Shown here: positions 9,107 to 53,823 of the stretch, in pieces
Numbering within the stretch: position 1 is the stretch's first letter
Layout of the letters: every line of letters begins with the position of its first letter
Source: an uncultured virus (IMG/VR IMGVR_UViG_3300021962_000072)
Taxonomy: Duplodnaviria; Heunggongvirae; Uroviricota; Caudoviricetes
IMG/VR virus record: IMGVR_UViG_3300021962_000072
Location: 1 to 64,000 of that record
Reading direction: 5' to 3' (one strand)
DNA: 64,000 bases
Program-made: the position numbers and the translations under genes
The notes under the pieces: generated by a model
Database searches by the model: none
The model's input: only the letters and a program-made list of their open reading frames with translations
Told to the model about the DNA's origin: nothing

Positions 9107-9232
9107 ATGGTATTCGAAGTAGTGTTGTGGGGATTTTTATCAGCGTTCGGGTGGTGGGGTGCTCAACACTATGTTATTGAACCCTACTTTCCTCCTCCGA
9201 TAGAAAAGAAAACAGATAAGAAGGCAGAATGA
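9107..9232 (+). CDS. 41-aa membrane peptide (MVFEVVLWGFLSAFGWWGAQH...), not in the ORF track
   Basis: AGGTGG RBS; ATGA overlap with the next gene. Confidence 0.6.
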   Translation: MVFEVVLWGFLSAFGWWGAQHYVIEPYFPPPIEKKTDKKAE

Positions 9233-9705
9233 AACTATTTGGACGCACAGGCGGTTACTGGTTGTTCTGGACAGGAGTCATTTACCTTGTATTTGGCTTA
9301 CCTGTTGCCTTATACTTCAAAGACATACCAACACCACTGATACAACTAGTTTGGTTAGTGGCGCTGGCCCTGCCTTTTGCGATTCCACCATTTGGCCGTT
9401 GGCTTAACTTAGATGTAGAATGGGATAGAAAAATGTTAGATTGGCTTAAGAAAAAACCTAGCAATGTAATTCCGTTTCCTGAACAAAAGGAAACCACAGA
9501 GTACGGTGGTGGGAGTTACGTGCCCCCAGAACCAAAGAAACCTCCTGTAACCTACTACACTCTAGGAATGACCAGTGAGAATCGTGTAGAATTCAAAATG
9601 GGTTACAGCGCCATTACAATGAATCATGACGGGCTGGTTAACTTAATGGAACAACTCGAAGTCTTTCGCAAACAACTCGCTGAATATGAGGGTATTGAAG
9701 AATGA
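9229..9705 (+). CDS. Membrane protein
   Basis: Two TM helices followed by a soluble tail. Confidence 0.65.
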   Translation: MKLFGRTGGYWLFWTGVIYLVFGLPVALYFKDIPTPLIQLVWLVALALPFAIPPFGRWLNLDVEWDRKMLDWLKKKPSNVIPFPEQKETTEYGGGSYVPPEPKKPPVTYYTLGMTSENRVEFKMGYSAITMNHDGLVNLMEQLEVFRKQLAEYEGIEE

Positions 9706-9884
9706 GCGGACGTGGTGTTATAATGCAAGAGCCAGAACAGTTCTGTGAACTGTGTGGCAAGTTAGATGAATGTCGGCCATATGGTCCTAACGATGAACAA
9801 ATCTGTTTTGATTGTGCCATGAAGGATGACGAATCTAAAGCAATCGCAGAAAAGAAAATGGCAGCATATATTTTTGGAGAATAA
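9702..9884 (+). CDS. Small zinc-finger protein
   Basis: CELC...CFDC. Confidence 0.65.
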   Translation: MSGRGVIMQEPEQFCELCGKLDECRPYGPNDEQICFDCAMKDDESKAIAEKKMAAYIFGE

Positions 9885-9959
9885 GCGTCTATCGCCAAAT
9901 GGAAAGGCAGGGGCCTCTAAAACCTCTATGCGTGGGTTCGATTCCCACTGGACGCACCA
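9885..9959 (+). tRNA. tRNA with CTA anticodon (amber suppressor)
   Basis: Acceptor GCGTCTA/TGGACGC-A-CCA; D arm GCC/GGC; anticodon loop CT-CTA-AA (9915-9921); T arm GTGGG-TTCGATT-CCCAC. Confidence 0.85.
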
Positions 9960-9967
9960 AATACAGT

Positions 9968-9975
9968 TATAAATA
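9968..9975 (+). promoter_or_regulatory. T4-like late promoter motif TATAAATA
   Basis: Exact match to the T4 late consensus, directly 5' of the structured leader. Confidence 0.5.
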
Positions 9976-9979
9976 AAAT

Positions 9980-10074
9980 GCCGGACCTGTAACCATACTC
10001 CGGCTCCGCTGACGCGAAAACAGGATGGGCTGCGCTCACGGGGTTGATAGTTTCCCGACACAACAAAACTATCA
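9980..10074 (+). ncRNA. Structured RNA / 5' leader (three helices with loop-loop complementarity)
   Basis: GCCGGA/TCCGGC; CCGcTGACGC/GCGcTCACGG; TGATAGTTT/AAACTATCA; loop CCTGT and CCAT are complementary to loop ACAGG and ATGG. Confidence 0.6.
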
Positions 10075-10095
10075 CATAACTTAAAGGAAAATAAA

Positions 10096-10671
10096 ATGAA
10101 ATAGATTGAATATGCATGTAAGGACATAGTGTTCCATTTTAACAAAAAACACTTAGAAGATCAGACCATTCCCATGTGGGTCTTAAAATTCCATGGCGAA
10201 ACTCTTTATGTGAATCACGTCGATTGTTCTGTTCCTTGGAGTACCAAAGAAACACCAGATAACAATCATACTAAAGGTAGCATCAAAGTCAAAGATGTGC
10301 TGTTGCAGATCAGTGATACTAACGAAGCTACAATTTCAAATCTCACTCTAATAGACAAATACAGACTTCGTAATCAAAAGTTGGGTATCACACGAGTGAT
10401 GTTTAGACCGAGTACTAAGTTTCATAAGGCGCTACAGGCGAATGAATTTAAGCACAGTCCTTTTAAAACTATATACGGTCGTTGTAGTAGTCCGTTTATC
10501 ATTTGTGATCTATTAAACAAATCGGAAATTACTTTAGCTGCTCTCAAGTACACCAATGACTTTCGTATAGTACAACCTAACGAAACTTATTTCCAACAGT
10601 ATGATGAGATCAAAGGTGATAATATTCCAGTAGATTATGGACATCCTAGCACACCGTTTGAATATAGTTAA
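10096..10671 (+). CDS. Hypothetical protein with an in-frame TAG at codon 3 (ATG AAA TAG ATT GAA TAT GCA TGT AAG GAC ATA GTG TTC...)
   Basis: AAAGGA RBS 7 nt before ATG 10096; TAG at 10102-10104 is in frame with the 10129-10671 ORF; adjacent tRNA(CTA). Confidence 0.75.
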
Positions 10672-10737
10672 GGATAAAAAATAATCTCCGTCCGATTCTC
10701 TTGTGTAAATACAATCACTTGAAAAGAAAGGATAATA

Positions 10738-10971
10738 ATGTCAACAGCTAAAGAAATAACTGACCAGTTAATAGACAGAGCAAAAGCAGCTAAAAAATTC
10801 GATCTCAAATTACGAGTACACGAAAATTGGATGCCTTGCGGAGTAGTTCCATTTGATATACACATCAAAGATGGAATAGCCACTGTTTCTGTCATAGCTC
10901 AAAGTTTAGAAGAAGCTCAATTTCAAGTGTCATTATTCATGGAATCGGACGATTGGATCTCTGATAAGTAA
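10738..10971 (+). CDS. Hypothetical protein
   Basis: AAGGA RBS, 77 aa. Confidence 0.7.
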   Translation: MSTAKEITDQLIDRAKAAKKFDLKLRVHENWMPCGVVPFDIHIKDGIATVSVIAQSLEEAQFQVSLFMESDDWISDK

Positions 10972-10994
10972 TGTTAGCACATTAAGAGGATCCT

Positions 10995-11555
10995 GTGAAA
11001 AACTTCAATGAATTTAATGCGGGCGATCGCGTTGAGGTTAAACTTCTAGAAAATTCGGTACATTTTCTTGTTGGCGAAATTTCAGAAGATAATATCAGCG
11101 AGTGTATAAAATGGATAGTCTATGAAAATCTAGACACCAGCAAACAAAAGATCCTAACACTGTATATCAACTCAACTGGCGGCAATCTTTACGATGCATT
11201 TGCCCTCATCGATGTGATGAGATCTAGCACACATCAAATCCGAACGATTGGTATAGGAGCAGTAATGAGTGCAGCATTCCTTATATTTGCCGCTGGACAT
11301 CAGGGTGAACGATATGCTGCTCGTAACACCAGCTATATGTGTCATCAATTTACAGAAAGTATGCACGACAAATATCACGACCTCAAGGCCACTATGCGAG
11401 AGAACGATCTCTGCAATCAAAAAATGATCAACATATTACGGGATTCAACAGGCTTGACAGCAAGTAAAATCAAAGTTAAACTACTACCAGCGAGCGATGT
11501 ATACCTTAAGGCAGACGAACTCATCGAGCTAGGCGTAGCGGATCACATCCTGTAA
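10995..11555 (+). CDS. clpP: ClpP-like protease subunit
   Basis: [15 protein letters not shown] (catalytic Ser), MCHQ (His) and ELGVADHI motifs. Confidence 0.85.
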
Positions 11556-11560
11556 TAAAT

Positions 11561-11776
11561 ATGGCTAAAGAATCAGTTTTAAAAATCTCAGGCACCATCA
11601 CCGAAGTTTTACCTAACACTACATACAGAGTGAAGTTAGAAACTGGAACAGAAATATTCGCTTATACCAGCGGAAAAATGCGCCAACATAATATTAAGAT
11701 TTTGTTAGGCGATCAGGTATCACTGGAGCTCAGCCCTTATGACCTTACTAAAGGAAGAATTGTTTACAGAAAATGA
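11561..11776 (+). CDS. infA: Translation initiation factor IF-1
   Basis: MAKE...GTITEVLPN...SGKMR...[22 protein letters not shown]. Confidence 0.95.
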
Positions 11777-32991: not shown

Positions 32992-34400
32992 TATTCTATG
33001 AATTTTAATTCTGGGAAGAAAGTAGAAAACTTTGTATTTCTTACTTTATCTAACTCTGCGAGATATTCTTTTAATGCTGGTAACAAATGACTGTTGTCTG
33101 CCGAATCCATAAATTCTAGTACAGCTTGCCAGCGGCGCCAACCATAAGGATTCTTTTTCCAAAAGTCTTCATCCTGTCTGTAATTTTCGTGTAACCAGGT
33201 TGCAAATTCTGCAAATGATTTTCTTACTTCTGCTTTATCTTCTTGCGGTAAACATCTAATATCTAAAAATGTAGGTATGTAAAGCAGATGCATATTAAAG
33301 ATACCGCCACCTGCTTGTATTCCGCCCGTGACATTTTCAAAATTTATCTTTTTAAAGTTCTGTTTTATCTTCCATCGAGCAAAGTCTGGCAGATGTTTGA
33401 TGTTTAGTATCTGTATAGCTGTGGCTATACTGACTTGTATATTGTCTGGGGTGTTATCTAACCTGTGCAAGTTCTTTTCGATAACTGACCAATCGCTAGG
33501 ATATCTTATGTAATAATTTTTATCACCATAAGCATCTATGCTAAATCCTACTTTAACTTTTTTAAATTTTGTCCATAGATCAATGATCTCTTCATTTACT
33601 AATAATCCGTTTGTGTTGTATCTGATTAGGATCTTATCCGCATATCCTTGACTGATTATTTCTTCTAAAAACTTTTTGTGTTCTTTTATTAGTAAAGGTT
33701 CCCCGCCTGCAAAGTAAACTTGTTTTAGATTAGGAATCTGTTTATACATTTCTTTCCAGAAGTCTGGATTTTCGTGCCAATAATTGTTGAACTCCTTTTG
33801 GTCCCAACTCATTTGACTCTTCAATGCATCGTGTTTGAATAACGGATAGACTTTTTTATGATCTGCTACCCACAAACTCGAATCGTGTGGACTGCACATA
33901 ACACATTTTAAGTTACAGGTATGGCCTAATCTAAGATCTAGATAGACTAACTTCTCCGGCACAGTGCCATCTTGAGCAGTCTGTTCTACTAACTCCTCTA
34001 AATCGATTCCGTCCAAAGACCAGGATGCTGTTTCCCAAATGCGCTTGCTGGCTATTCCTTTGCTTTCTTCTTCAAAACATTTACGACAGCTAGCAGGAAT
34101 TTCATTGCGCAGCATCGTTGTTCTAACCGAACGCATGTATTCGTTATTCCAGGCGCTCATAGGAGTTTCTCTACCGAAGTTAGCAGGTCGTCCTGTTTCG
34201 TTTTTTACTAATCCTACTATATGATCTTCGCCAGCACCAGAGGCATTTGACGAACAACATAATCTCATGTCGCCATTTGGTCTAGTTGCAAAGTGTATCC
34301 AGGGCAATGCACAAAAAGTATTGCTGCCGGTCATCGATGCTATTTTATTTTGCCAATGGCCTAGCTCAGTATCTTGAGGTTTAATCCAAAATTCTTCCAT
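32991..34400 (-). CDS. Radical SAM protein with N-terminal twitch-like domain
   Basis: CALPW...CC...CRKC; CNLKCVMC; GGEP. Confidence 0.9.
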   Translation of the reverse strand: MEEFWIKPQDTELGHWQNKIASMTGSNTFCALPWIHFATRPNGDMRLCCSSNASGAGEDHIVGLVKNETGRPANFGRETPMSAWNNEYMRSVRTTMLRNEIPASCRKCFEEESKGIASKRIWETASWSLDGIDLEELVEQTAQDGTVPEKLVYLDLRLGHTCNLKCVMCSPHDSSLWVADHKKVYPLFKHDALKSQMSWDQKEFNNYWHENPDFWKEMYKQIPNLKQVYFAGGEPLLIKEHKKFLEEIISQGYADKILIRYNTNGLLVNEEIIDLWTKFKKVKVGFSIDAYGDKNYYIRYPSDWSVIEKNLHRLDNTPDNIQVSIATAIQILNIKHLPDFARWKIKQNFKKINFENVTGGIQAGGGIFNMHLLYIPTFLDIRCLPQEDKAEVRKSFAEFATWLHENYRQDEDFWKKNPYGWRRWQAVLEFMDSADNSHLLPALKEYLAELDKVRNTKFSTFFPELKFIE

Positions 34401-43852: not shown

Positions 43853-44740
43853 TTAGGGCAGTTTATTGTCCTGTAGCGTATGGTTCGCCCAGCGTTACGA
43901 AGAATAACTGTGGTGACACAGCCAAAGCTAGAATGCCTACATACTAGCGCCAGCAATGGTTCACGTAAACAAGCCTGCTCACTACCGCGAGGTAGCGTTC
44001 ACTGATAAGACCGGTGGATGTAACTGTGAAGCAAGTGTTAGGGAAAGAATGTGCGTCGACAGGCCGTAAGGAACCTGGGCGTATGAAAAGTAACAGGTGG
44101 TGCTGACTTCCTAACAAAACCAACTTGCGAACAGGTATGAGAAAGGGTAGTGCATTGGTTCGAGATGTTGCAGTCAAGAGCTCGTGTGCAATGTTAATGG
44201 TTAGTGGACTGTTTTGATGCAGGACACCGATCGTGAAACATCACTGAGTAGTCCGCAAGACAAAAGGTATGTGGTGAGTTGTATTCAGTAGTCCAAAAGA
44301 TTATTGAGCAACAGAGGTAGCTCATCACGGTAGGTTCGATATAGCTCATTCGGTAGAGCATCTGTATGTTAAACAGACGGCAGTTGGTTCGATTCCAACT
44401 ATCAACACAAAAATGCAAAGACTGCCTCGGTCATACGTGAAAAGCATCTAATGCTTGACACGCAAGTGAATCAAGCCTAGTAAAGCTCGCAAGGTGATAC
44501 TAGTTTGTATTGGAAGTTTCGTAAAGTGTTAGCGCACTTGAATGGCTCGCAAGGTCAACGGGATAGATGATACAGAATAGCGTATGACGACAAGACTACT
44601 GCCTGTCTTTAAAAACGGCGATGCTGGTAGCAGACATAGGTACCGCAAGGGCTTATGTGGATGTCGAGAGAAGCTGTGCTCGCAAGGTGCAGTATAATGC
44701 TCGAGGTGTTACTGGTTAAAGTGTAATCTCAGCTTTAACA
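43853..44740 (+). ncRNA. Large structured ncRNA, GOLLD-like
   Basis: ~0.9 kb with no credible ORF; six CGCAAG (GNRA) capped hairpins plus GCGA/GTAA loops; embedded tRNA; terminal hairpin GTTAAAGT/GCTTTAAC; adjacent to a phage tRNA array. Family assignment is from size and context only. Confidence 0.6.
44334..44407 (+). tRNA. tRNA-Asn(GTT)-like element embedded in the large ncRNA; imperfect acceptor stem, no CCA
   Basis: TAGCTCATTCGGTAGAGC D arm; TCTGT-ATGTTAA-ACAGA; GTTGG-TTCGATT-CCAAC. Confidence 0.65.
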
Positions 44741-44827
44741 CTATTCTAAAACATATTGGCCACAGCCTAGACGCATAGAAATAGGATGCATAGCATATTG
44801 TCGTCAGTGTATTTCAGAATAGTTTTT

Positions 44828-44912
44828 GGATGTGTAGGAAAATTGGTAACCCCAGTGGACTGTAAATCCGCCGCCTCTGGCACTGCTGGTTCGACTCCAG
44901 CCGCATCCACCA
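44828..44912 (+). tRNA. tRNA-Tyr(GTA)
   Basis: Cloverleaf, long variable arm, CCA. Confidence 0.9.
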
Positions 44913-44918
44913 AAGAAT

Positions 44919-44993
44919 GTATCCCTAGTGTCAACGGCAGCACGACAGTCTCCAAAACTGCTAGTCGGGGTTCGAATCCCTGGGGGTACGCCA
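44919..44993 (+). tRNA. tRNA-Trp(CCA)
   Basis: Anticodon loop CTCCAAA; CCA end. Confidence 0.9.
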
Positions 44994-45090
44994 GTAAAGT
45001 CTTAATGGGAGAGTTGCGGGAGGAGACTTTTACGTAAAGTCGCCGCTCACTCTTAAACAACAGCCCTGTGTGTCCCTTAGCAGTTTTTAT

Positions 45091-45166
45091 GCACGGTTCG
45101 TCTATCGGTCGAGGACGCTGCCCTTTCAAGGCGGAAAGACGGGTTCGATTCCCGTACCGTGTACCA
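45091..45166 (+). tRNA. tRNA-Glu(TTC)
   Basis: Loop CTTTCAA; CCA end. Confidence 0.9.
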
Positions 45167-45171
45167 GTTAT

Positions 45172-45249
45172 GCACCGGTGGCAGAGAGGCCCAATGCAGT
45201 GGATTGCAAATCCATAAAACCGTAGGTTCAAATCCTACCCGGTGCTCCA
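45172..45249 (+). tRNA. tRNA-Cys(GCA)
   Basis: Loop TTGCAAA; U73 discriminator; CCA. Confidence 0.9.
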
Positions 45250-45278
45250 TTGACAAACTAATTTTTATACTATACACT
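45250..45278 (+). promoter_or_regulatory. Sigma70-type promoter for the nuclease-like ORF
   Basis: TTGACA-17-TACACT, 5 nt before the ATG (probably leaderless). Confidence 0.6.
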
Positions 45279-45283
45279 GTAGT

Positions 45284-45784
45284 ATGGGAATTAAATTTAG
45301 AAAATCATTAGCTGTAGGCCAAGTATGGGAATCCAAGATGGAGAAATGGATGGACCAATACTTCGCTAATACAAACTGGGAAGTCAATGATACCCGAGAC
45401 GTACATAGAGACGAGGACGGAGATCAATTTCCCGACTATGTTCTTTACAATACTGAGACAGAAAAGATCTGTTTTATAGATGCTAAGAAAAGAAACTGTT
45501 ACGAAATGTATGGTCAAAGATACTTTGGCTTTGATGAACGATTCTATAACAGTTATAAAAACATAGCTAAGAAACACGATACAAAAGTTTACATAGGATT
45601 CAATGATCCTAAGTTTGATCCAGACCATGTCTATATCCTAGACATGGATCTACCTCACAGTAAAAAATTATTCTTTAGTAATGAGCATGGCACTAGTTAT
45701 GCTTATCGTTGGAGTGTAGACATTCTAACAAAATTTAAAATCGAAGGAAGTGTGGCAGAGTCCGGTTTATTGCACCTGTCTTGA
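45284..45784 (+). CDS. PD-(D/E)XK nuclease-like protein inserted in the tRNA array
   Basis: GQVWE...FPDY...FIDAKKR motif order; the 3' end runs into tRNA-Ser. Confidence 0.65.
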   Translation: MGIKFRKSLAVGQVWESKMEKWMDQYFANTNWEVNDTRDVHRDEDGDQFPDYVLYNTETEKICFIDAKKRNCYEMYGQRYFGFDERFYNSYKNIAKKHDTKVYIGFNDPKFDPDHVYILDMDLPHSKKLFFSNEHGTSYAYRWSVDILTKFKIEGSVAESGLLHLS

Positions 45785-45835
45785 AAACAGACGATCAGAA
45801 ATGGTCCGTGAGTTCGAATCTCACCGCTTCCGCCA
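45746..45835 (+). tRNA. tRNA-Ser(TGA)
   Basis: Loop CTTGAAA; long variable arm; G73; CCA. Confidence 0.9.
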
Positions 45836-45841
45836 ACATTA

Positions 45842-45916
45842 GGTCTCAAAGTGTTCATGGACGCACATCAGCCTGTCACGCTGAAAGAAGGGGATCGTTA
45901 CCCCTTGGGACCGCCA
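45842..45916 (+). tRNA. tRNA-Asp(GTC)
   Basis: Loop CTGTCAC; T-loop variant ATCGTTA. Confidence 0.9.
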
Positions 45917-45918
45917 AC

Positions 45919-45993
45919 GGTAACGTAGCATAATGGTCGTGCAACAGCTTCATACGCTGCAAGGTATAGGTTCGAGTCCTATCGTTACCACCA
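45919..45993 (+). tRNA. tRNA-Met/Ile2(CAT)
   Basis: Loop TTCATAC; G1-C72 paired. Confidence 0.85.
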
Positions 45994-46003
45994 AATAAAA
46001 TTT

Positions 46004-46078
46004 GCCTCAGTAGCTCAGTGGTAGAGCAACGTCTTGATAAGGCGTAGGTCGGTGGATCGTTCCCACCCTGCGGCACCA
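46004..46078 (+). tRNA. tRNA-Ile(GAT)
   Basis: Loop TTGATAA; T-loop ATCGTTC. Confidence 0.9.
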
Positions 46079-46081
46079 AGT

Positions 46082-46305
46082 TTGTAGCGTTAGCAAGTAA
46101 AAAGCACATTGTAAAAAGGTTCGAAACTTAATACAATGTAGAGCAGGAGGGGGTTCGACTCCCCACCGTCCATTCCGGGCGGTAGCTGAAGTGGAAGCGC
46201 CTGGCTTAGTAGCCCAAGTAACATGTCCTGGAAAACCTCCGCATAAGGAAGTCCGGCTCTGTATGCGTAAACACTAGCGATGAACCTGAGGACGCTAGGC
46301 TACAA
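46082..46305 (+). ncRNA. Unknown ~225-nt structured RNA with two T-loop-like hairpins
   Basis: Closing stem TTGTAGC/GCTACAA; ACATTGTA/TACAATGT enclosing AAGGTTCGAAACTT; GGGGG-TTCGACT-CCCC; CTAGCG/CGCTAG. Confidence 0.6.
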
Positions 46306-46314
46306 TCCTTTAAC

Positions 46315-46393
46315 CTGGGTGTAATGTCAATCTGCGTAGACGGCGATCTTTGGAAGATCGAGGTTGTAGGTTCGAATCCTACCATCCAGACCA
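46315..46393 (+). tRNA. tRNA-Pro(TGG), atypical D arm
   Basis: CGATC-TTTGGAA-GATCG; CCA. Confidence 0.8.
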
Positions 46394-46396
46394 ATT

Positions 46397-46471
46397 CGGC
46401 CTGTAGCTCAGTGGAAGAGTTCTGGTCTTCGAAACCAGCTGTCGGGAGTTCGAATCTCTCCAGGCCGGCCA
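46397..46471 (+). tRNA. tRNA-Arg(TCG)
   Basis: Loop CTTCGAA. Confidence 0.85.
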
Positions 46472-46473
46472 AT

Positions 46474-46549
46474 ACCCCTGTAACTCATTGGACAGAGTAC
46501 GATGCTACGAACATCGGAGTAGGAGGTTCGATTCCTTCCAGGGGTGCCA
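46474..46549 (+). tRNA. tRNA-Arg(ACG)
   Basis: Loop CTACGAA. Confidence 0.9.
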
Positions 46550-46556
46550 GAAATAT

Positions 46557-46641
46557 GCGAGCGTGGTGGAATTGGTATACACAGCAGACTTAAAATCTGC
46601 CGCCTTCGGGATTGAGGGATCGTGACCCTCCGCTCGCACCA
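46557..46641 (+). tRNA. tRNA-Leu(TAA)
   Basis: Loop CTTAAAA; variable arm; T-loop ATCGTGA. Confidence 0.9.
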
Positions 46642-46644
46642 AAT

Positions 46645-46726
46645 GCCCCTGTGGCCAAATTGGTAAAGGCAGCTCTCTCAAAAGGAGTGTTAGTTTCTCC
46701 CGGTTCGAGTCCGGGCAGGGGTACCA
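46645..46726 (+). tRNA. tRNA-Leu(CAA)
   Basis: Loop CTCAAAA; shortened variable region. Confidence 0.85.
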
Positions 46727-46903
46727 TTAAAGGAGAAAACAAAATGGGGCGATCGCAGTTATTATTTTGGTTGTAGTAGGATTAATTTGGATAGACAAAA
46801 ATTTAAAATAGGAGAATGGCATGAAGGTAGGTAAACCTTAGTGTCGCCCGGTACTCCGTGTGGTCCGGGTTGGCACAGTAAATCAATCTAATACGGACTA
46901 TAC

Positions 46904-46979
46904 GGAGGTATAGCTCAATGGCTAGAGCAACCGGCTTTTAACCGGTAGGTTCAGGGTTCGAGTCCCTGTGCCTCCACCA
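46904..46979 (+). tRNA. tRNA-Lys(TTT)
   Basis: Loop CTTTTAA. Confidence 0.9.
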
Positions 46980-46984
46980 ATTTT

Positions 46985-47060
46985 GCTGCTTTAGCTGATG
47001 TGGTCATAGCACCGGTCTGAAGAACCGAGGAACGTGGTTCGATCCCACGAGGCAGCACCA
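46985..47060 (+). tRNA. tRNA-Phe(GAA)
   Basis: Loop CTGAAGA. Confidence 0.9.
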
Positions 47061-47065
47061 AATAT

Positions 47066-47139
47066 AGCGGTATGGTGTAATGGTAACACAACTGACTTTG
47101 ACTCAGTCGTTCTAGGTTCGAGCCCTGGTACCGCCGCCA
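47066..47139 (+). tRNA. tRNA-Gln(TTG)
   Basis: Loop CTTTGAC. Confidence 0.9.
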
Positions 47140-47145
47140 CACAAT

Positions 47146-47219
47146 GGTGTCTTTAGTGTAGTGGTAGCAAAGCTGACTGTGAATCAGCAGGCGAGGGTTC
47201 GATTCCCCAAGGCACCCCA
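47146..47219 (+). tRNA. tRNA-His(GTG)
   Basis: Loop CTGTGAA; G-1/C73. Confidence 0.9.
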
Positions 47220-47230
47220 AGGAGATAATT

Positions 47231-47416
47231 ATGAAGCCTGTAACTTTTGAAAACATTCTTAATCACGAAAAATTTGTTTGTGAGAACACGCGAGATGTGC
47301 AGGTAATAGATGGTGTTGAATATCTCGTCGTTCATAGGCCTAGTCAGGAAAGACGATTCTTAATGCGCAAGGATACTCTAAAAAAATTAGAAAAGAGACT
47401 TGACACAGCTAAGTAA
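47231..47416 (+). CDS. Hypothetical protein (61 aa)
   Basis: AAGGAG RBS. Confidence 0.7.
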   Translation: MKPVTFENILNHEKFVCENTRDVQVIDGVEYLVVHRPSQERRFLMRKDTLKKLEKRLDTAK

Positions 47417-47427
47417 TTTGCTATAAT
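47400..47427 (+). promoter_or_regulatory. Sigma70-type promoter inside the tRNA array
   Basis: TTGACA-16-TATAAT with extended -10 TG. Confidence 0.7.
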
Positions 47428-47435
47428 AGATTTAT

Positions 47436-47519
47436 GCCCCGGTGGTGGAATGGTAGACACGTTGGTCTTAGAAGCCAATGTCGCAAGGCGTGAGAGTTCG
47501 AGTCTCTCCTGGGGCACCA
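47436..47519 (+). tRNA. tRNA-Leu(TAG)
   Basis: Loop CTTAGAA; variable arm. Confidence 0.9.
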
Positions 47520-47528
47520 AGGATAATC

Positions 47529-47750
47529 ATGGAAGAGATTAATTTCGCAAAATTTACCAAAGACATGGCGGACTTTGAAAAGAAACTGCCTAATGTCGAC
47601 TTCGTAGTAGAACAAGTTGAAAGCCCTCATGACGCAGACGAAATAATGTGGGTACTTGAGATACAAGGGGACAAACTTCATTTTCCTACATATAAAGAAA
47701 TGAAACAGTATCTAACTAAAGTTTCTAAAGAGATAGGGAAAAAGAAATAA
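47529..47750 (+). CDS. Hypothetical protein
   Basis: ATG after AAGGA, downstream of the tRNA. Confidence 0.65.
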   Translation: MEEINFAKFTKDMADFEKKLPNVDFVVEQVESPHDADEIMWVLEIQGDKLHFPTYKEMKQYLTKVSKEIGKKK

Positions 47751-47825
47751 GCATCGTTAGCTCAGTGGTAGAGCAGGGCCCTTACAAGGCCAAGGTCGGG
47801 AGTTCAACCCTCTCACGATGCACCA
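47751..47825 (+). tRNA. tRNA-Val(TAC)
   Basis: Loop CTTACAA. Confidence 0.9.
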
Positions 47826-47830
47826 AAAAT

Positions 47831-47929
47831 GCCTCCGTAGCTTAATGGTAAAGAAGCGAGCTTATACCTCGCCAAAGCACAGGCCAGATAAGCCTGAGTG
47901 TGCAGGTTCGAGTCCTGCCGGAGGCACCA
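47831..47929 (+). tRNA. tRNA with TAT anticodon (Ile AUA) and a ~29-nt variable arm
   Basis: GCCTCCG/CGGAGGC-A-CCA; GCGAG-CTTATAC-CTCGC; variable arm CAGGC/GCCTG. Confidence 0.8.
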
Positions 47930-47969
47930 ATTTATTATAGAAAACTATTTTTCTATAATATATACAAAT

Positions 47970-49574
47970 ATGAAAATAAAAAATATAGTTATAGTCGGTG
48001 GCGGCACTTCTGGCTGGTTTACAGCAGGAGCTCTTTCAAAAGTCTATGATCAATTTAATATCACTTTGATAGAGTCTCCGGATATTCCAAAGATTGGAGT
48101 AGGAGAAAGTGTTACACCGCACGTACAAGGATTTTTTGATTTTCTAGAAATTGACACAAAGCACTGGATGAATGAAACTGGTGCTGTTTATAAATTAGCT
48201 AACAAGTTCACTGGATGGATCACTGGGGATCAAAATGAATCCGAATATTTTGGATTTTCGTATCCTTCCGCAGCAGAGTTGCTGTACAGAGAAACTTCAG
48301 AATTAGTCAGCTACAACGATTTAAAATATCCAGAGAGTACTGTTAAAACAACAGATGTATTTTCTCAACTGTTGTTAGATGGTTCCATAGACAAGTTTGA
48401 TAGGTATTGGAGTAGTGCATATCATTACATGGAGAAAAACGTTTCTCCGTTTTTAAATGACAAGTATCTACTTAATCAGTTTTACAGCTGGAGTCAACAC
48501 ATCAACGCAGATAAATGCGGAGACTATGTAAGAGATTTTATTGCATTACCGAACGGTGTGAAACATATTTCTAAAAAAGTCATAGAAGTAAAATGTGAAC
48601 AGGATAAAATATCATCCGTTGTTTTAGAAGATGGAGAAGTTGTTACAGCTGATTTGTTTGTTGATGCTTCTGGTTTCGCGAGACTGTTAGTCAAAGCACT
48701 AAACTGGAATGTGATTCCCTACAAAGATTATGCCATCGATACTGCTGTAGTTGCACAATTAGAATATAACGACATACAAAAAGAGTTAGTAAATTACACA
48801 CAATCGATAGCACAACCCAACGGATGGATGTTTAAGATCGGTTTATATCATAGGATGGGATGTGGACTTTGTTTTAGTTCTAGTCACTTAGATGTTGAAC
48901 AGGCTATAGACGAGTACAAAAAACTAAATTCTAATAGAAGATTAGAACCCAGAGTGCTATCCTGGAAACCTGCTAGATTAGAACAATTTGCCAATGGTAA
49001 CGTAGCCACTGTAGGACTGTGTTCTGGTTTCTACGAACCATTAGAAGCAAATGCGTTATACATTTTGATCAGTGGAATATACGAATTGATCAACAGTTTA
49101 GACGGATATAAAAAAACTGGAAACTTAGATTGGTCCAATTACAATAAGAAACTGGCATACACCATTGACGATCTAACAGATTTTATAAAGATACATTACA
49201 CTCTTAGTAAGAGAACTGACACTGACTTTTGGAACGACATGCGATCGATCGGCGACAAAGAACGTCACGAAGATTTGATTTTTCAAAAGTATAGCGATGG
49301 AAGAAATTCCATAACCAATGCTAAAGACCATTGGACATTATTTGCAGAATATATGTGGTTGCAGTTAGCGGCTTCTTGGAAATTAGATTTATCTAAATTT
49401 AAGAAAGATTCGATAACTAAAAATCAGTTGAACTTAGGACGTCATTATTTTACTTCGAGAGAAGTAAAGCACGATTTAATCAGCGATGACTTACCTAATA
49501 ATTATGAATGGTTAAAAGAAAATATATTCCAGGATGTAGATTATAAAACCTGGGAAAGAAAGTATCTCAAGTGA
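47970..49574 (+). CDS. Flavin-dependent halogenase (tryptophan halogenase family)
   Basis: VGGGTSGW, IGVGESV, DLFVDASGF, GWMFKI and FYEPLEA. Confidence 0.85.
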   Translation: MKIKNIVIVGGGTSGWFTAGALSKVYDQFNITLIESPDIPKIGVGESVTPHVQGFFDFLEIDTKHWMNETGAVYKLANKFTGWITGDQNESEYFGFSYPSAAELLYRETSELVSYNDLKYPESTVKTTDVFSQLLLDGSIDKFDRYWSSAYHYMEKNVSPFLNDKYLLNQFYSWSQHINADKCGDYVRDFIALPNGVKHISKKVIEVKCEQDKISSVVLEDGEVVTADLFVDASGFARLLVKALNWNVIPYKDYAIDTAVVAQLEYNDIQKELVNYTQSIAQPNGWMFKIGLYHRMGCGLCFSSSHLDVEQAIDEYKKLNSNRRLEPRVLSWKPARLEQFANGNVATVGLCSGFYEPLEANALYILISGIYELINSLDGYKKTGNLDWSNYNKKLAYTIDDLTDFIKIHYTLSKRTDTDFWNDMRSIGDKERHEDLIFQKYSDGRNSITNAKDHWTLFAEYMWLQLAASWKLDLSKFKKDSITKNQLNLGRHYFTSREVKHDLISDDLPNNYEWLKENIFQDVDYKTWERKYLK

Positions 49575-49580
49575 AACATT

Positions 49581-49675
49581 GGAGTGTTGGCCGAGTTGGT
49601 CGAAGGCACCTTCCTGCTAAGAAGGCATGTGGGCAAAAACCTGCATCATTGGTTCGAATCCAATACACTCCGCCA
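49581..49675 (+). tRNA. tRNA-Ser(GCT)
   Basis: Loop CTGCTAA; long variable arm. Confidence 0.9.
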
Positions 49676-49695
49676 AATTTTTAAAAAGGAAAAAT

Positions 49696-49878
49696 ATGTT
49701 AAAACCAGGCGCTAATTATAGAATGTCAAAACCTCTAAAGACAAGTTTAGCATTGTCTAAGTTTCAAGATCCTCACAAAAAGGCTCAGTGGAAACGTGCA
49801 ATGATACAAGCCGAGATGGCTGCGTTGATTAAACCAGTATCGTCGAGATCTCGAAATAAAGACAAAGCAGAAGAATAA
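49696..49878 (+). CDS. Small basic hypothetical protein
   Basis: AAGGA RBS, 60 aa. Confidence 0.6.
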   Translation: MLKPGANYRMSKPLKTSLALSKFQDPHKKAQWKRAMIQAEMAALIKPVSSRSRNKDKAEE

Positions 49879-49886
49879 CTCGTCTA

Positions 49887-50366
49887 ATGAAAAAGAGGAT
49901 TTTAATAATTATAGATCCCTGGGAATTAGATTGGATTAATATTTTACTTTTTCCGTTGTCAGCGCATTATGCTGTGTTGAGAAATATCAAAAGATTCGTT
50001 GAATCGAGAAATGACATCGACACTATAGTCATAGCTGCATACGATAACAAGAAAGCATCTTCTATAGTATGTAATCTTAAAGGTAAAAAAATTTACGCCA
50101 CTACTATCGATGAGATTAAATTCTTACTAGATGACGATACCGTCGATGGAATATTCTTAGCAGGAATGGCTTGGAATATGTGTGTAAGAAACAGAGAACT
50201 AGGATACTTAAATCTATCCAAGTTTTCTGGTAATAAAGATTTGTTAGTAAAAAATGATTGTGTTATATATTCTGGAGAATACGATTCTAAATATTTTGAT
50301 CCTTTAGAAAATCCGGAATGGTTACCAGTAGAAAAAAACGTTTATAAGTACACAATGGGGGTATAG
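49887..50366 (+). CDS. Isochorismatase/cysteine hydrolase-like protein
   Basis: LIIIDPW and LAGMAWNMCV motifs. Confidence 0.55.
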   Translation: MKKRILIIIDPWELDWINILLFPLSAHYAVLRNIKRFVESRNDIDTIVIAAYDNKKASSIVCNLKGKKIYATTIDEIKFLLDDDTVDGIFLAGMAWNMCVRNRELGYLNLSKFSGNKDLLVKNDCVIYSGEYDSKYFDPLENPEWLPVEKNVYKYTMGV

Positions 50367-50432
50367 CTCAGCTGGGAGAGCAGTAGCTTTGCAAGCTAAA
50401 GGTCATCGGTTCGATCCCGTTTACCTCCACCA
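50357..50432 (+). tRNA. tRNA-Ala(TGC)
   Basis: G3:U70; loop TTTGCAA. Confidence 0.92.
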
Positions 50433-50446
50433 AATAAGAGGATAAT

Positions 50447-50614
50447 ATGTCAAAAACAAATCATGCAGATCCAATGAAAACAAAAACAGGAAAGACTAGA
50501 CTAGGACCACTTAATCTAGTACAATTACGTGAGATGTTAGAAAAGAGCTCTCGTCCAAAAGACAAGAGCAAGATTCAAAATAGAATCAGGACATTAGAAT
50601 CAAGAAGTAAGTAA
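50447..50614 (+). CDS. 55-aa basic protein (MSKTNHADPMKTKTGKTRLGPL...), not in the ORF track
   Basis: GAGGA RBS; fills the gap between tRNAs. Confidence 0.6.
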   Translation: MSKTNHADPMKTKTGKTRLGPLNLVQLREMLEKSSRPKDKSKIQNRIRTLESRSK

Positions 50615-50620
50615 AGTTTC

Positions 50621-50694
50621 GCCCTTATAGTTAAATGGTATAACGACGGTTTTGTAATCCGTAGTTTGCAGTTCGATTCTGTGTAGGGGCACCA
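50621..50694 (+). tRNA. tRNA-Thr(TGT)
   Basis: Loop TTTGTAA. Confidence 0.9.
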
Positions 50695-50701
50695 AACACA
50701 T

Positions 50702-50777
50702 TCCCCGGTAGCTCAGCGGTAGTAGCAGTTGACTGTTAATCAATTGGTCGGAAGTTCGATCCTTCCCCGGGGAGCCA
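50702..50777 (+). tRNA. tRNA-Asn(GTT)
   Basis: Loop CTGTTAA. Confidence 0.9.
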
Positions 50778-50804
50778 AAATAAAGAAAAATTTAAGACAA
50801 CTGG

Positions 50805-50832
50805 TTGACATTAGTTTTAAATCAACTATAAT
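50805..50832 (+). promoter_or_regulatory. Sigma70-type promoter
   Basis: TTGACA-16-TATAAT. Confidence 0.7.
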
Positions 50833-50838
50833 AGTTTT

Positions 50839-51110
50839 GCTGAGGTAGTAATACCAAAGCCGGTGAAGTAGAGGGTAGAAGAGAATAGACAATCGTTTTC
50901 GCCCATAAGCGAATACGAACTAATCCTGGCAAACAGTCTTGAAAACTGTTCGTGCTTGAGTGAACCGATTCTTATATACCTGTCAATTGCTAATCGGAAA
51001 TATTCAGGTCTCTGTAGCCTGTCTATTGCATATTGTCCAGACCGACGACATCGCACAATAGGTCTTGTCAATTGTCCGGTCTATTACTTGACCCTTTACC
51101 GACCCGTTAA
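50839..51110 (+). ncRNA. ~270-nt structured leader/ncRNA with repeated TGTCWATTG
   Basis: Long-range pairing of 50861-50890 with 51079-51101; motif copies at 50981, 51020 and 51066. Confidence 0.5.
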
Positions 51111-51125
51111 CATAGAGAGGCACAA

Positions 51126-51698
51126 ATGAAAGTAACATTACGTAAAGCAAATGCAATTCAAAACAGCATCAACGATGCCGTTAAAAATATCAAAGTAGAG
51201 TTCAATGTAACTCTCAACGAATTTCAAAATCCAGAAGCTGAGATTGAAAAAGCCAATCAGAAGATGCTGGAAAATGATCTCCGAAGGACTAACCTGTTGG
51301 TTGCCCTTTACAACATTCGCGGACTAGTGTGTGCCGCAAATGCCGAAAGCGGAATCGATCTTAAGCTGACTAAAGCAGCTTTCATCGACAAGCGTGTTGC
51401 ACAACTGACTGAAATCGTTGGTCGTGACACTGTCACTGACATCGAAGTTGTCAAAGGCAAACTTGAGAAGATCAAGAATTTGAAAGACGAAGCACGTAGT
51501 CGTATCTATGGCTACGGTGACACTGTTGAAACCAGTGTGTTGCGAGTAGGAGACATTGATCGTTTCCGTGCTCAATTAAATGATCTCAAGAAACAGAAAC
51601 AATCTTTGAATGATGAAGTTCTTGAGTTAAACATCAAAACTGAGATCCCTCTCAGCGATGAAGTTGTTGCAACTCTTCAACTAGAAGGATTAATCTAA
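51126..51698 (+). CDS. Coiled-coil protein (weak resemblance to the DIP1984/septicolysin-like family)
   Basis: GAGG RBS; helical heptad pattern; C-terminal LELNIKTEI. Confidence 0.6.
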   Translation: MKVTLRKANAIQNSINDAVKNIKVEFNVTLNEFQNPEAEIEKANQKMLENDLRRTNLLVALYNIRGLVCAANAESGIDLKLTKAAFIDKRVAQLTEIVGRDTVTDIEVVKGKLEKIKNLKDEARSRIYGYGDTVETSVLRVGDIDRFRAQLNDLKKQKQSLNDEVLELNIKTEIPLSDEVVATLQLEGLI

Positions 51699-51902
51699 CA
51701 GACCCCGGGGTCCCTTCCTCGTTATTAAAGGGGGTAATTGACTTCACCAAAACGTCAGGGTGCAAACGGTAATCGACCCCAAGGCCTTTTCGGCGACTTG
51801 AGACACCGTGGCGGCAGAAGCAGAACTGGCGACAAAAATTTAAATACTGATCGACAGGGTAGACAACTCAGTCTAGGGCGGAACAGGGAACTGTAGCTAG
51901 AC

Positions 51903-52046
51903 ACTTTTGTTAATGGTACAGCTCGTGGGCTAATGTACACAGCTAACCTTGCCCAAAGCGGAAAGCCTATGATACTAGTAAATGGTCTGTGTAACAGATC
52001 AACAATAGGTAGCAAGAGGGTAGTAAACTGTACCATTAACAAAAGT
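51903..52046 (+). repeat. Perfect 19-bp inverted repeat enclosing a ~106-nt structured core
   Basis: ACTTTTGTTAATGGTACAG (51903-51921) / CTGTACCATTAACAAAAGT (52028-52046). Confidence 0.85.
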
Positions 52047-52050
52047 TTGA

Positions 52051-52126
52051 CGCAGGGTGTTAGAAGCGGTATCTGGCAAGGCTCATAACCTTGAGGTCGG
52101 GGGTTCGATTCCCTCCCCTGCAACCA
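52051..52126 (+). tRNA. tRNA-fMet-like (CAT)
   Basis: C1:A72 mismatch; loop CTCATAA. Confidence 0.85.
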
Positions 52127-52231
52127 TTTTAGGGAATAGCACTCTTGACGCATCGTTATTGTGCTCATTTTAAATAACAAAGATGACATTAGTATTGTAG
52201 ATACTTTTAGTTGTTGTGCCCTAAATCTATT

Positions 52232-52308
<77 letters not shown>

Positions 52309-52357
52309 ATTTCGCCCTGACACATGGCGTATAATAGGATAAGTAGTGTGTCTCAAT

Positions 52358-52433
<76 letters not shown>

Positions 52434-52444
52434 AAGGATAATAT

Positions 52445-52855
52445 ATGTTAGAATGTTTAATCGTAGGCGACAGTATTGCAGTAGGAACAGCTAACGTAAG
52501 GAAAGAATGCGTTAGTTACAGTGTTGGCGGGATCAACAGTTGGGGCTGGAATAAAAAGTTTGCTGAAAAAAATATAGCAGCAAGCACAGTTATCATCAGT
52601 CTCGGAACTAATGACCATTCTGGTGTTCATACTTTTAAAGAATTGTCTGCTATGCGGGCCAGAGTAGAAGCAGATAAAGTGTTCTGGATCTTGCCGCCTT
52701 GTAATGACAAGTTCTGTAAACCCAACGTTAATGATATCGTTAACATAATCGCAAGAAGCCGAGGAGATACTATCATTAAAACAGATCGTTTACAAAAAGA
52801 TTCAATACATCCTAGCTGGGCAGGTTATAAAGAACTTGCAGAAAAATCAAGATGA
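52445..52855 (+). CDS. SGNH/GDSL hydrolase
   Basis: GDSIA, LGTND and DSIHP. Confidence 0.85.
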   Translation: MLECLIVGDSIAVGTANVRKECVSYSVGGINSWGWNKKFAEKNIAASTVIISLGTNDHSGVHTFKELSAMRARVEADKVFWILPPCNDKFCKPNVNDIVNIIARSRGDTIIKTDRLQKDSIHPSWAGYKELAEKSR

Positions 52856-52873
52856 TGCTACAGTAATATCTAT

Positions 52874-52947
52874 GCGGGGTTCGTATAGTGGTAATACCTC
52901 AGCCTTCCAAGCTGATGCGGAGAGTTCGATTCTCTTACCCCGCTCCA
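52874..52947 (+). tRNA. tRNA-Gly(TCC)
   Basis: Loop CTTCCAA. Confidence 0.92.
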
Positions 52948-52952
52948 AATAT

Positions 52953-53029
52953 CTGACTGTAGCTCAACTGGATAGAGCAACAGCCTTCTAAGCTGTAGGT
53001 CGGGGGTTCGAGTCCCTCCAGTCAGGCCA
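52953..53029 (+). tRNA. tRNA-Arg(TCT)
   Basis: Loop CTTCTAA. Confidence 0.92.
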
Positions 53030-53033
53030 AATT

Positions 53034-53108
53034 CTCCCTATAGTTAAATGGATATAACAAAACACTCCTAAGGTTTAGTTGTAGGTTCGATTCCTACTGG
53101 GGAGGCCA
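53034..53108 (+). tRNA. tRNA-Arg(CCT)
   Basis: Loop CTCCTAA. Confidence 0.85.
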
Positions 53109-53119
53109 TAAATATCCAC

Positions 53120-53764
53120 ATGAACATATTAATATTAGGCGACAGTTGGGGGGTCCCAAATTACTACGGACCGCCCGGAGTTGATGCAAAATACCATACA
53201 GAATTTCTACTAAAAGATCTAGGGTACACAGTTTACAACTGTGCTAACAATGGCGGATCTAATCTAGCATCGATTAGTTCAGCAAAGAATCATTTAATAT
53301 CTAAAATAGATTGGATCATTTGGTTTCACACAGAATCTCTAAGAGATAGGAATCTTTTCGATGCTGATAAATCATTCCTTATAAATGATGTTATAGAAAG
53401 TAATTCTAGAATAATCTATCAGGAATTTGATAAACTTAAAAAGTTCACCTCGGCTAAAACATTAGTCATTGGTGGACAGGCAAAATTATTAGATTGTTTC
53501 TATGAGATAACATCTGCAGATTTTGTGATTCCTGATTGGCGCAGTTCTATTTTTGGCAAACAATTTCCAACTGTACATACACTCTGTCATTTGGACCTCA
53601 TAGAAAAATCCGCAGACAGTTTAGAGTTTAAAAACCGTCTTTTAAAAGATCACAAAACTATCTTAGATCAAATGAAATGGTCTGAAGATTTTCCGGATAA
53701 CTGCCATCCTGGAATCCGACCACATAGAGAACTAGTAGAAAAATTTTCGGCTCTCATAGTATAA
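53120..53764 (+). CDS. SGNH hydrolase-like protein
   Basis: GDSWG, GGSN and DNCHP. Confidence 0.7.
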   Translation: MNILILGDSWGVPNYYGPPGVDAKYHTEFLLKDLGYTVYNCANNGGSNLASISSAKNHLISKIDWIIWFHTESLRDRNLFDADKSFLINDVIESNSRIIYQEFDKLKKFTSAKTLVIGGQAKLLDCFYEITSADFVIPDWRSSIFGKQFPTVHTLCHLDLIEKSADSLEFKNRLLKDHKTILDQMKWSEDFPDNCHPGIRPHRELVEKFSALIV

Positions 53765-53823
53765 AGGTATTACACTACATTGGTAATGTAGAAACACTGG
53801 ATCGTTACCAGTTGGGAGCACCA
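53750..53823 (+). tRNA. tRNA-Thr(GGT)
   Basis: Loop TTGGTAA; T-loop ATCGTTA; overlaps the upstream CDS end. Confidence 0.85.

Follow-up and report, generated by a model that had tools for sequence, protein, structure and literature searches.

Phages with a recoded stop codon (code 15, TAG = Gln; crAss-like phages, Lak phages and others) encode suppressor tRNAs, and in the available part of one report a gating of late or lysis genes is proposed for them (bioRxiv 10.1101/2021.08.26.457843). Suppressor tRNAs are also present in jumbo phages that use the standard code: XacN1 has two CUA suppressors, whose targets, according to the accessible sections of the paper, did not emerge when 18 amber stops were read through (PMC5852040), and Atu_ph07 has 33 tRNAs including one UCA suppressor, with targets given as unknown and UGA stops only counted in the text that is available (PMC6102473). 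A jumbo-phage survey from 2026 treats suppressor tRNAs, in its accessible portion, only within alternative codes (PMC13037316). The role of suppressor tRNAs in standard-code phages has been an open question, to which the locus described here would provide an answer. It is part of a stretch of 64,000 nucleotides (the window) from an uncultured virus of the Caudoviricetes, positions 1 to 64,000 of the IMG/VR record IMGVR_UViG_3300021962_000072, and consists of a tRNA(CUA) gene at positions 9885-9959 and a downstream gene at 10096-10671 with an in-frame TAG as third codon, the gate codon. The two probably form one module: the tRNA would decode the gate, and synthesis of the protein would be tied to suppressor activity. 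A full-text literature search, which covered few subscription journals, found no paper describing such a gate module.

The likeness to the code-15 phages, as far as the accessible descriptions go, is that a phage-borne tRNA(CUA) would read an in-frame TAG inside a standard-code host. The differences are that the genome is not recoded (TAG ends about 9% of the open reading frames, ORFs), that a single TAG within the first 2 to 14 codons affects one gene here and a small operon in other lineages, and that the gated genes are a PTH2 gene and the gene of a linked protein, neither structural nor lysis genes. XacN1 and Atu_ph07 are likewise standard-code jumbo phages with a suppressor tRNA, and Atu_ph07 itself carries a gated operon; the available parts of the two papers name no target, whereas here a target is located at the 5' end of one gene or small operon.

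Most of the arrangement had been described in an earlier note on this DNA, made from the sequence alone. ARAGORN, Rfam and the predicted fold agree with its tRNA(CTA) with encoded CCA, far from the main tRNA array, and the sequence contains, as stated there, an AAAGGA motif followed by ATG-AAA-TAG in frame with an ORF of 180 amino acids (GTG 10129..10671 by table 11). The open frame after the TAG has 188 codons up to the TAA at 10669-10671, and the product with leader has 191 codons, again as described; the gap between tRNA and ATG 10096, given as 137 nt, is 136 nt. The central proposal of the note, a gene whose expression depends on the suppressor tRNA that the phage itself encodes, is strongly supported by the comparison of related loci, which shows a universally conserved TAG, coding from the very next codon, a co-occurring tRNA and covariation of stop codon and anticodon. 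The switch or timer function and the non-standard residue that the note also considered are conjecture.

The TAG is conserved in relatives almost without exception. An IMG/VR search with a profile of the N-terminal domain identified 377 relatives, the best 80 of which were kept (64-100% identity). All 80 have a TAG directly ahead of I-E-Y/F-A-C-K/R-D/E (I-N-E-F-A-C in three) and an ATG behind a Shine-Dalgarno (SD)-like site 1 to 8 codons upstream of the TAG. A blind census with the back-translated motif I-E-[YF]-A-C-K-D-x-V-F-H-F-N-K, with no requirement for anything upstream, was done on viral and metagenome collections that partly overlap. The preceding codon is TAG in 110 of 111 viral stretches, with a TAG one codon further up in the remaining one, and in 118 of 119 of the metagenome matches listed, the other having ATG. 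Apart from this one ATG, neither Gln nor any other sense codon was seen at the position of the TAG in the viral and metagenome census. Public protein forms that begin with M-S-Q-I-E-F or M-A-Q-I-E-Y (P0004, P0008, P0015, P0019 and others) are probably the result of code-15 gene calling, with TAG translated as Q, because no DNA examined has a Gln codon there. Three DNA runs and one RNA-library run supplied contigs for an alignment over 9700-10700; these were inspected for a sense codon at 10102, and none has another letter at 10102-10104. Variants in these contigs are synonymous changes at 10116, 10137 and 10146 and an insertion of ACA after 10098 (resulting in an MTK leader); a wholly different leader, joined at 10102, also occurs. 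Coverage by the RNA-library contigs is restricted to 9979-10292 and to few letters, and these contigs could stem from DNA carry-over. Sequencing error and pseudogene are excluded as explanations of the TAG.

The leaders in front of the TAG differ widely (MK, MS, MA, MTK, MSK, MTQ, MSQQ, MTQQ, MTTNQ, M-T/I-DLNPIAI and others), with a length of 2 to 14 codons including the ATG; 52 of 92 distinct contexts have two codons. The base after the TAG is always a purine (A in 87 contexts, G in 5), and synonymous change begins at the first codon 3' of the TAG: ATT/ATC/ATA, GAA/GAG, TAT/TAC/TTT/TTC, GCN, TGT/TGC and AAR/CGN/AGR all occur in the first codons. At the other end of the gene, none of 63 distinct relatives terminates its own ORF with TAG; all use TAA or TGA. 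When 863,009 bases of related loci were scanned for a gate pattern (SD, ATG, at most 12 codons, a stop, at least 60 open codons), the stop was TAG in 140 cases, TGA in 12 and TAA in 7.

The suppressor tRNA accompanies the gene. ARAGORN identifies a same-strand cta tRNA in the flanks of 61 of the 80 loci, mostly upstream and in four cases downstream. For 15 of the 19 loci without a tRNA in the flanks, the whole record was searched with R1, a covariance model built from 45 tRNAs(CUA) of related loci, and 13 of these records turned out to contain a CUA tRNA, at a distance of 3 to 8.5 kb or within the flank but overlooked by ARAGORN; the two searched records without one are 11-kb fragments. Overall, a CUA tRNA is present in 74 of 76 records tested (four loci were left out), at a distance to the gene that varies from about 25 nt to several kb. 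Some homologues are short forms without the C-terminal domain, and a search with the short form of the cultured phage RHph_I1_18 resulted in a second set of 68 more loci, 67 of them readable upstream. Most of these encode TAG-gated long or short forms, and for 47 of the 67 a CUA tRNA is no more than 3 kb away.

Tblastn with the read-through product identified homologues in three cultured phages, RHph_I1_18, Phosso and Atu_ph07, that align from query residues 7-9, upstream of the GTG. Rhizobium phage RHph_I1_18 has an unannotated short form (M-S-E-F-M-TAG-N-E-S-C-R-E-V-I-F-H-F-N-K..., 76 residues after the stop) with a tRNA(cta) 12 nt 3' of it. What the earlier note had missed is that the gate is shared with PTH2 genes of other phages. 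In a group of second-set loci (L153, L160, L161, L163, L165-167, L170, L171, L173), the start of the short form is an ordinary ATG and overlaps with the end of the gated gene ahead of it, which starts ATG-ACT-TAG-ATT..., 60 to 70 nt after the tRNA, and encodes a PTH2 peptidyl-tRNA hydrolase (PF01981, E 2.4e-9, 37.9 bits, cut-off 23). Sixteen metagenomic loci and the uncultured phage LR756500 (462 kb) have TAG-gated PTH2 genes. What is gated in short-form lineages is PTH2, beside or overlapping a homologue of the N-terminal domain of the window protein, which is itself not a PTH2. As annotated, the PTH2 of Sinorhizobium phage Phosso begins with an internal Met, which leaves out the first 12 positions of the profile; upstream are an SD, ATG-AAG-TAT-TAG and then 50 in-frame codons, among them those of the conserved first strand, and the phage carries an annotated tRNA(cta). 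The PTH2 of Agrobacterium phage Atu_ph07 starts ATG-ATT-GGC-GAA-CAC-TTT-TGA, followed by the same conserved strand, and among the tRNAs of this phage is one with a tca and none with a cta anticodon (ARAGORN on 14 loci covering 30 of 31 Rfam tRNA matches). No other single argument for decoding of the gate by the tRNA is as strong as the combination of TAG with CUA in Phosso and of TGA with UCA in its relative Atu_ph07. Both phages have PTH2, a small gene and then a protein ending in an FHFNK domain in this order, with 4-nt overlaps. Among the 148 related loci and three phage records scanned, every PTH2 lies next to a short or fused form (18 metagenomic loci, Phosso, Atu_ph07), and neither of two near-complete relatives with the long form has it. 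For annotation, this means that a gene is missing in RHph_I1_18 and that the PTH2 of both Phosso and Atu_ph07 is called from an internal Met, with the first strand cut. The Atu_ph07 UCA tRNA (L178 1014-1088; record 430713-430787) has no annotation there in MF403008.1.

Could the gate be read without the phage tRNA? Very short ORFs, such as the bar minigenes of lambda, terminate badly and shed peptidyl-tRNA. Similarly, termination at the two-codon ORF could be poor and host near-cognate tRNAs or limiting release factor 1 (RF1) could cause the read-through, with the phage tRNA serving otherwise, for example by extending host proteins or countering defence. It would fit that in Phosso and Atu_ph07 a long distance separates suppressor and gated PTH2, and that the suppressor is up to 8.5 kb off in some relatives. 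However, that TAG alone is used with a CUA tRNA, and TGA with a UCA tRNA, is hard to explain without cognate decoding, and the gate is kept behind leaders of up to 14 codons, which makes this explanation an unlikely one.

We consider it very unlikely that ATG-AAA-TAG is a mini upstream ORF and that ribosomes terminate and then restart at the adjacent ATT without any suppressor, the tRNA being unrelated. AUU is a weak bacterial start codon (infC) and would be usable, the codon after the TAG is ATT, ATC or ATA in 79 of 92 contexts, and the short, variable leaders resemble coupling upstream ORFs. However, the remaining 13 contexts have ACT, AAA, AAC or GTN, with AAC in RHph_I1_18, and gated PTH2 genes have GTT and AAC; most of these codons are unable to initiate. 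Reinitiation also leaves unexplained the strong bias of the gate pattern for TAG over TGA and TAA, the near-constant presence of the CUA tRNA and the pairing of TGA with tRNA(UCA) in Atu_ph07.

An ordinary gene that starts at GTG 10129, with ATG-AAA-TAG and tRNA present by coincidence, is what table-11 ORF finding proposes, and the ESM Atlas holds exactly this form, from the GTG residue on, with the residue read as M. However, homologues do not start there: the codon reads GTG, GTC, GTT or GTA among the 80 relatives, and in 39 of the 92 distinct contexts the stretch from the TAG to the FHFNK motif contains no canonical start (ATG, GTG or TTG). Furthermore, the nine codons from TAG to GTG are conserved at the protein level with synonymous changes in 80 of 80 relatives, the residues upstream of the GTG form most of predicted strand 1, and distant homologues, as mentioned, align from upstream of it. 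A start at the GTG is therefore extremely unlikely.

There is no indication of genome-wide recoding, in agreement with the earlier note. The window's record has 78,187 bp and is estimated to be 22% complete. A crude ORF call resulted in 128 ORFs with a coding density of 0.860 under code 11; 64 end in TAA, 50 in TGA and 14 in TAG, the latter including the genes ending at 12407, 22561 (- strand), 28987 and 50366. The density increases to 0.897 with TAG as sense codon and to 0.894 with TGA as sense codon; because the two gains match, this is no recoding signal. Stops that have 40 or more open codons on either side are TAG in 19, TAA in 41 and TGA in 20 cases. A scan of the record for SD, ATG, at most 12 codons, a stop and at least 80 open codons identified two sites with TAG and none with TAA or TGA. 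One of the two, at 34412 (- strand), was rejected: its TAG still belongs to the 3'-terminal part of the gene upstream, and ATG 34400 is the start of the 469-aa gene that follows. The only real gate in the record is the one at 10102. In a relative of 363,943 bp that is rated 100% complete, 431 ORFs were called with a coding density of 0.95 (TAA 247, TGA 146, TAG 38). It has 31 tRNAs, one of them CUA, and one convincing gated gene, the homologue of the window gene; six other matches to the pattern lie inside longer opposite-strand ORFs or just upstream of ordinary starts, as judged by eye and overlap only, and were rejected. A TAG-recoded, code-15-like phage with this gene as one of many recoded ones is thus scarcely credible, even though a CUA tRNA is encoded, Q-bearing protein forms are public and the relative LR756501 has two in-frame stops in PTH2 and two CUA tRNAs, because TAG still serves as terminator in both genomes, coding density under code 11 is high in both, TAG-split ORF pairs are not commoner than those with other stops and each genome has a single convincing gated gene.

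Beside the tRNA cluster of the complete relative is an ORF with an RF-1 domain (L464, G003 231273-231590, - strand; 70.9 bits, open frame of 189 aa). It is too short for a full release factor and perhaps ArfB-like; no such ORF is present in the other near-complete relative or in the window's fragment.

Several observations weigh against a coupling of tRNA and gene. The case for tRNA charging and UAG read-through rests on comparison throughout. In the second set, 20 of 67 loci have no suppressor within 3 kb, the range searched. The gene can also do without a gate: L143 and L437 are ungated variants with ATG in place of TAG, and the short forms of the L153/L165 group are ungated, though each overlaps the end of a gated PTH2. 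Ordinary PTH2 starts are found in Xoo-sp13, RsoM2USA, SCTP-2, RAS14, phiM12 and Myrna (gp84), and gating is not general to phage PTH2, judging from these sequences. In the complete relative, back-up stops are no closer for genes ending in TAG (median 13.5 codons) than for those ending in TAA (9) or TGA (5.5). With strong global suppression, 38 phage proteins would thus be extended, and suppression is more likely to be weak, brief or tolerated. Finally, a role of the window protein in translation is guilt by association: it has no family and no informative fold, and two relatives have no PTH2.

The tRNA is well formed. The Rfam tRNA model matches 9885-9959 over its full length (model 1-71 of 71) with 55.9 bits (E 9.3e-11; gathering score 29), the minimum free energy fold is the canonical cloverleaf, and the anticodon loop is C-U-CUA-A-A (7 nt; U33, purine at 37). 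The other 30 tRNAs predicted by ARAGORN form an array at 44335-53823, 34.4 kb away. R1 assigns 80.7 bits to the tRNA(CUA) and at most 52 bits to the other tRNAs of the window, with Met, Lys and Val tRNAs as runners-up, tied at 50-52 bits. The 45 aligned related tRNAs(CUA) show compensatory change in 11 of 15 pairs, and T32-C33-T34-A35-A36 (alignment numbering) is invariant. G1-C72 (44/45), C2-G71 (45/45), G3-C70 (44/45) and A73, all present at the acceptor end of the window tRNA too, are fixed or nearly so; more distant members have G73 or different stems. Because pairs 1-3 and A73 are fixed while other pairs covary, these sequences suggest that the acceptor end carries an identity signal. In E. 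coli, U35 together with A73 favours LysRS and C34-U35 favours GlnRS; our guess for the residue inserted at the gate, from U35 and A73, is Lys or Gln. Neither Lys/Asp/Asn-type (PF00152) nor Glu/Gln-type (PF00749) aminoacyl-tRNA synthetases, the only synthetase families searched, were found in two near-complete relatives. ARAGORN labels the tRNA as tRNA-Pyl, because of the CUA anticodon only. Pyl-type tRNAs have a shortened D loop and no G18G19 or T-psi-C consensus; here the D loop has GG and the T loop is a standard GTTCGA(T/A)TC, and the label was rejected on tRNA architecture alone.

Two further RNA elements were noted. In the window, 47831-47929 (+ strand; 99 nt directly 3' of tRNA-Val) scores 46.6 bits with R1 without being called by ARAGORN, and could represent an intron- or insert-containing tRNA or else a tRNA-like element. 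In record G004 (L085 2189-2612, - strand), ARAGORN predicts a permuted tmRNA-like gene with tag peptide, another translation-rescue element, about 600 nt from the tRNA(cta).

The gated protein consists of two predicted domains. AF2 models have a pLDDT of 87.3 for the full protein and of 91.8 for the N-terminal domain, with strand 1 extending from residue 2 to residue 12 or 13 after the TAG. Neither Pfam (E up to 1) nor PHROG has a family for the window protein, including its N-terminal domain of about 80 residues. In structure searches with VIA-align, the best Z score for the N-terminal domain is 3.4, with scattered OB-like rows and no fold assigned, and that for the full model, in which the C-terminal domain alone was matched, is 5.2, to generic ferredoxin-like, ACT or RRM folds. 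Foldseek identified no PDB match to the full model at E up to 0.001, and the ESM Atlas gave no usable match. Long-form proteins are abundant (at least 1,824 in a large protein collection), and R87, R89, N90, Q91, R97, H117, K121, C127, D135, N159, Y162, Y166 and D167 of the C-terminal domain are invariant in 63 distinct sequences; a set of invariant residues with Arg, His, Lys, Cys, Asp and Tyr would be compatible with an enzymatic or RNA-binding role. The window protein was rejected as PTH2 (no Pfam match; hhalign probability 1% against 15 phage PTH2 proteins), and its long form was rejected as equivalent of the middle gene of Phosso (hhalign probability 0.2%). As long-form genomes have no PTH2, the C-terminal domain, which is absent from short forms, might stand in for it there, but this is a guess. 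A complex prediction for the L165 PTH2 with its neighbouring short form (score 0.23, mark 0.32, without controls) counts neither way.

In the mechanism that we propose, ribosomes would be brought to ATG 10096 by the strong ribosome-binding site, initiate there and encounter UAG as the third codon. If RF1 wins, only a dipeptide would be made; if the charged suppressor wins, the result would be the full protein of 191 residues, the amount of which would track suppressor activity relative to release factor in the infected cell. The gate is predicted to lie in an unstructured tail ahead of the first beta strand, and the inserted residue should therefore hardly matter; since it is placed so early, a failed read would give no truncated protein but only a di- to tetradeca-peptide. 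In E. coli, a purine after the stop favours suppression, and the purine that follows the gate would do the same. A known analogue is prfB, where an early in-frame UGA and a +1 frameshift sense RF2, the gene's own product. By analogy, an early in-frame stop would measure decoding versus termination and set the output in both systems. They differ in that there is no frameshift here, the protein continuing in the same frame after the TAG, and in that the sensed molecule would be a tRNA encoded next door; the window product would count as a translation factor only through its linkage to PTH2.

The gated product is probably a translation quality control factor. With a peptidyl-tRNA hydrolase and its companion under the gate, a plausible purpose of the circuit is to adjust a clean-up or limiting activity in translation to the level of suppression: the module would couple a factor that handles or limits the consequences of suppression to the amount of suppression itself. 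This would link nonsense suppression to peptidyl-tRNA hydrolysis in phage biology and represent a minimal, one-codon and one-gene stage of stop-codon capture. As three cultured phages have the module, it is directly testable. More speculatively, standard-code giant phages may contain a closed circuit, with the suppressor tRNA as a weapon or takeover tool that acts via read-through of host UAG or UGA and the early cognate stop as a meter for a rescue factor (PTH2 and/or the FHFNK protein), made in proportion; we regard this as a tentative idea that is rather less probable than its opposite. If it is true, the rescue factor would clear stalled or dropped-off peptidyl-tRNA or cap suppression, the phages would have a first foothold for full stop-codon reassignment in the form of one captured codon and one client gene, and tRNA and gate would be a natural, portable orthogonal pair.

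The features of the locus are listed in the table. Small ORF, tRNA and gated gene all follow the promoter match, and a consensus scan of the + strand from there to 10671 found no terminator-like site. Megablast of 9200-11600 against phage records gave no match.

Table. Features at and around the gated gene (window positions)
Feature	Position	Strand	Remarks
Sigma-70-like promoter match	9695..9724	+	TTGAAG, 18 nt, TATAAT with TG; 10/12 consensus matches; candidate by consensus scan only
ORF of 60 aa with two Cys pairs	9702..9884	+	TAA abuts first base of the tRNA; no Pfam family
tRNA, amber-suppressor type	9885..9959	+	anticodon CUA; encoded CCA; ARAGORN (cta), Rfam, own covariance model R1
Spacer between tRNA and gene	9960..10082	+	fold z-score -1.13, not notable; no Rfam match
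Shine-Dalgarno AAAGGA	10083..10088	+	7 nt ahead of ATG 10096; SD-like site precedes leader ATG in relatives
Leader ATG AAA, two codons	10096..10101	+	from sequence
In-frame TAG (gate codon)	10102..10104	+	conserved in relatives; no variant among aligned contigs
N-terminal all-beta domain	10105..10347	+	motif FHFNKKHL...PMW...TKETPDN..TKGS; first strand from second codon after TAG (predicted)
GTG taken as start by table-11 ORF finding	10129..10131	+	probably internal Val codon
C-terminal alpha/beta domain, long form only	10348..10668	+	ferredoxin-like (AF2 model)
TAA stop of gated gene	10669..10671	+	from sequence

Downstream of the gated gene are homologues of a ClpP-family protease (10995-11555, + strand, E 4.4e-30) and of IF-1 (11561-11776, + strand; Pfam eIF-1a/IF-1, E 9.3e-23); the protease homologue, together with IF-1, lies 0.3 to 1 kb 3' of the gated gene. 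Locus L144 has a second TAG-gated ORF upstream of its own gated gene (from 2310, + strand; leader M-A, then I-E-Y-S-S..., 221 codons). It opens like an FHFNK N-terminus and then diverges, and resembles a homing-endonuclease-type insert by eye only.

Two more phages have suppressor-type tRNAs close to PTH2. In the 735-kb uncultured phage LR756501 (L466 2486-2830), the early TAG gate of PTH2 is followed after 34 codons by another in-frame stop, past which the homology extends; 2.3 kb downstream are two cta tRNAs, and the genome may be more widely recoded. In Mycobacterium phage Myrna, a tRNA annotated as tRNA-Ser (L467 2972-3043; record 33522-33593) has a cta anticodon according to ARAGORN and lies 130 nt 3' of PTH2 gp84, the ordinary GTG start of which directly follows a TAG.

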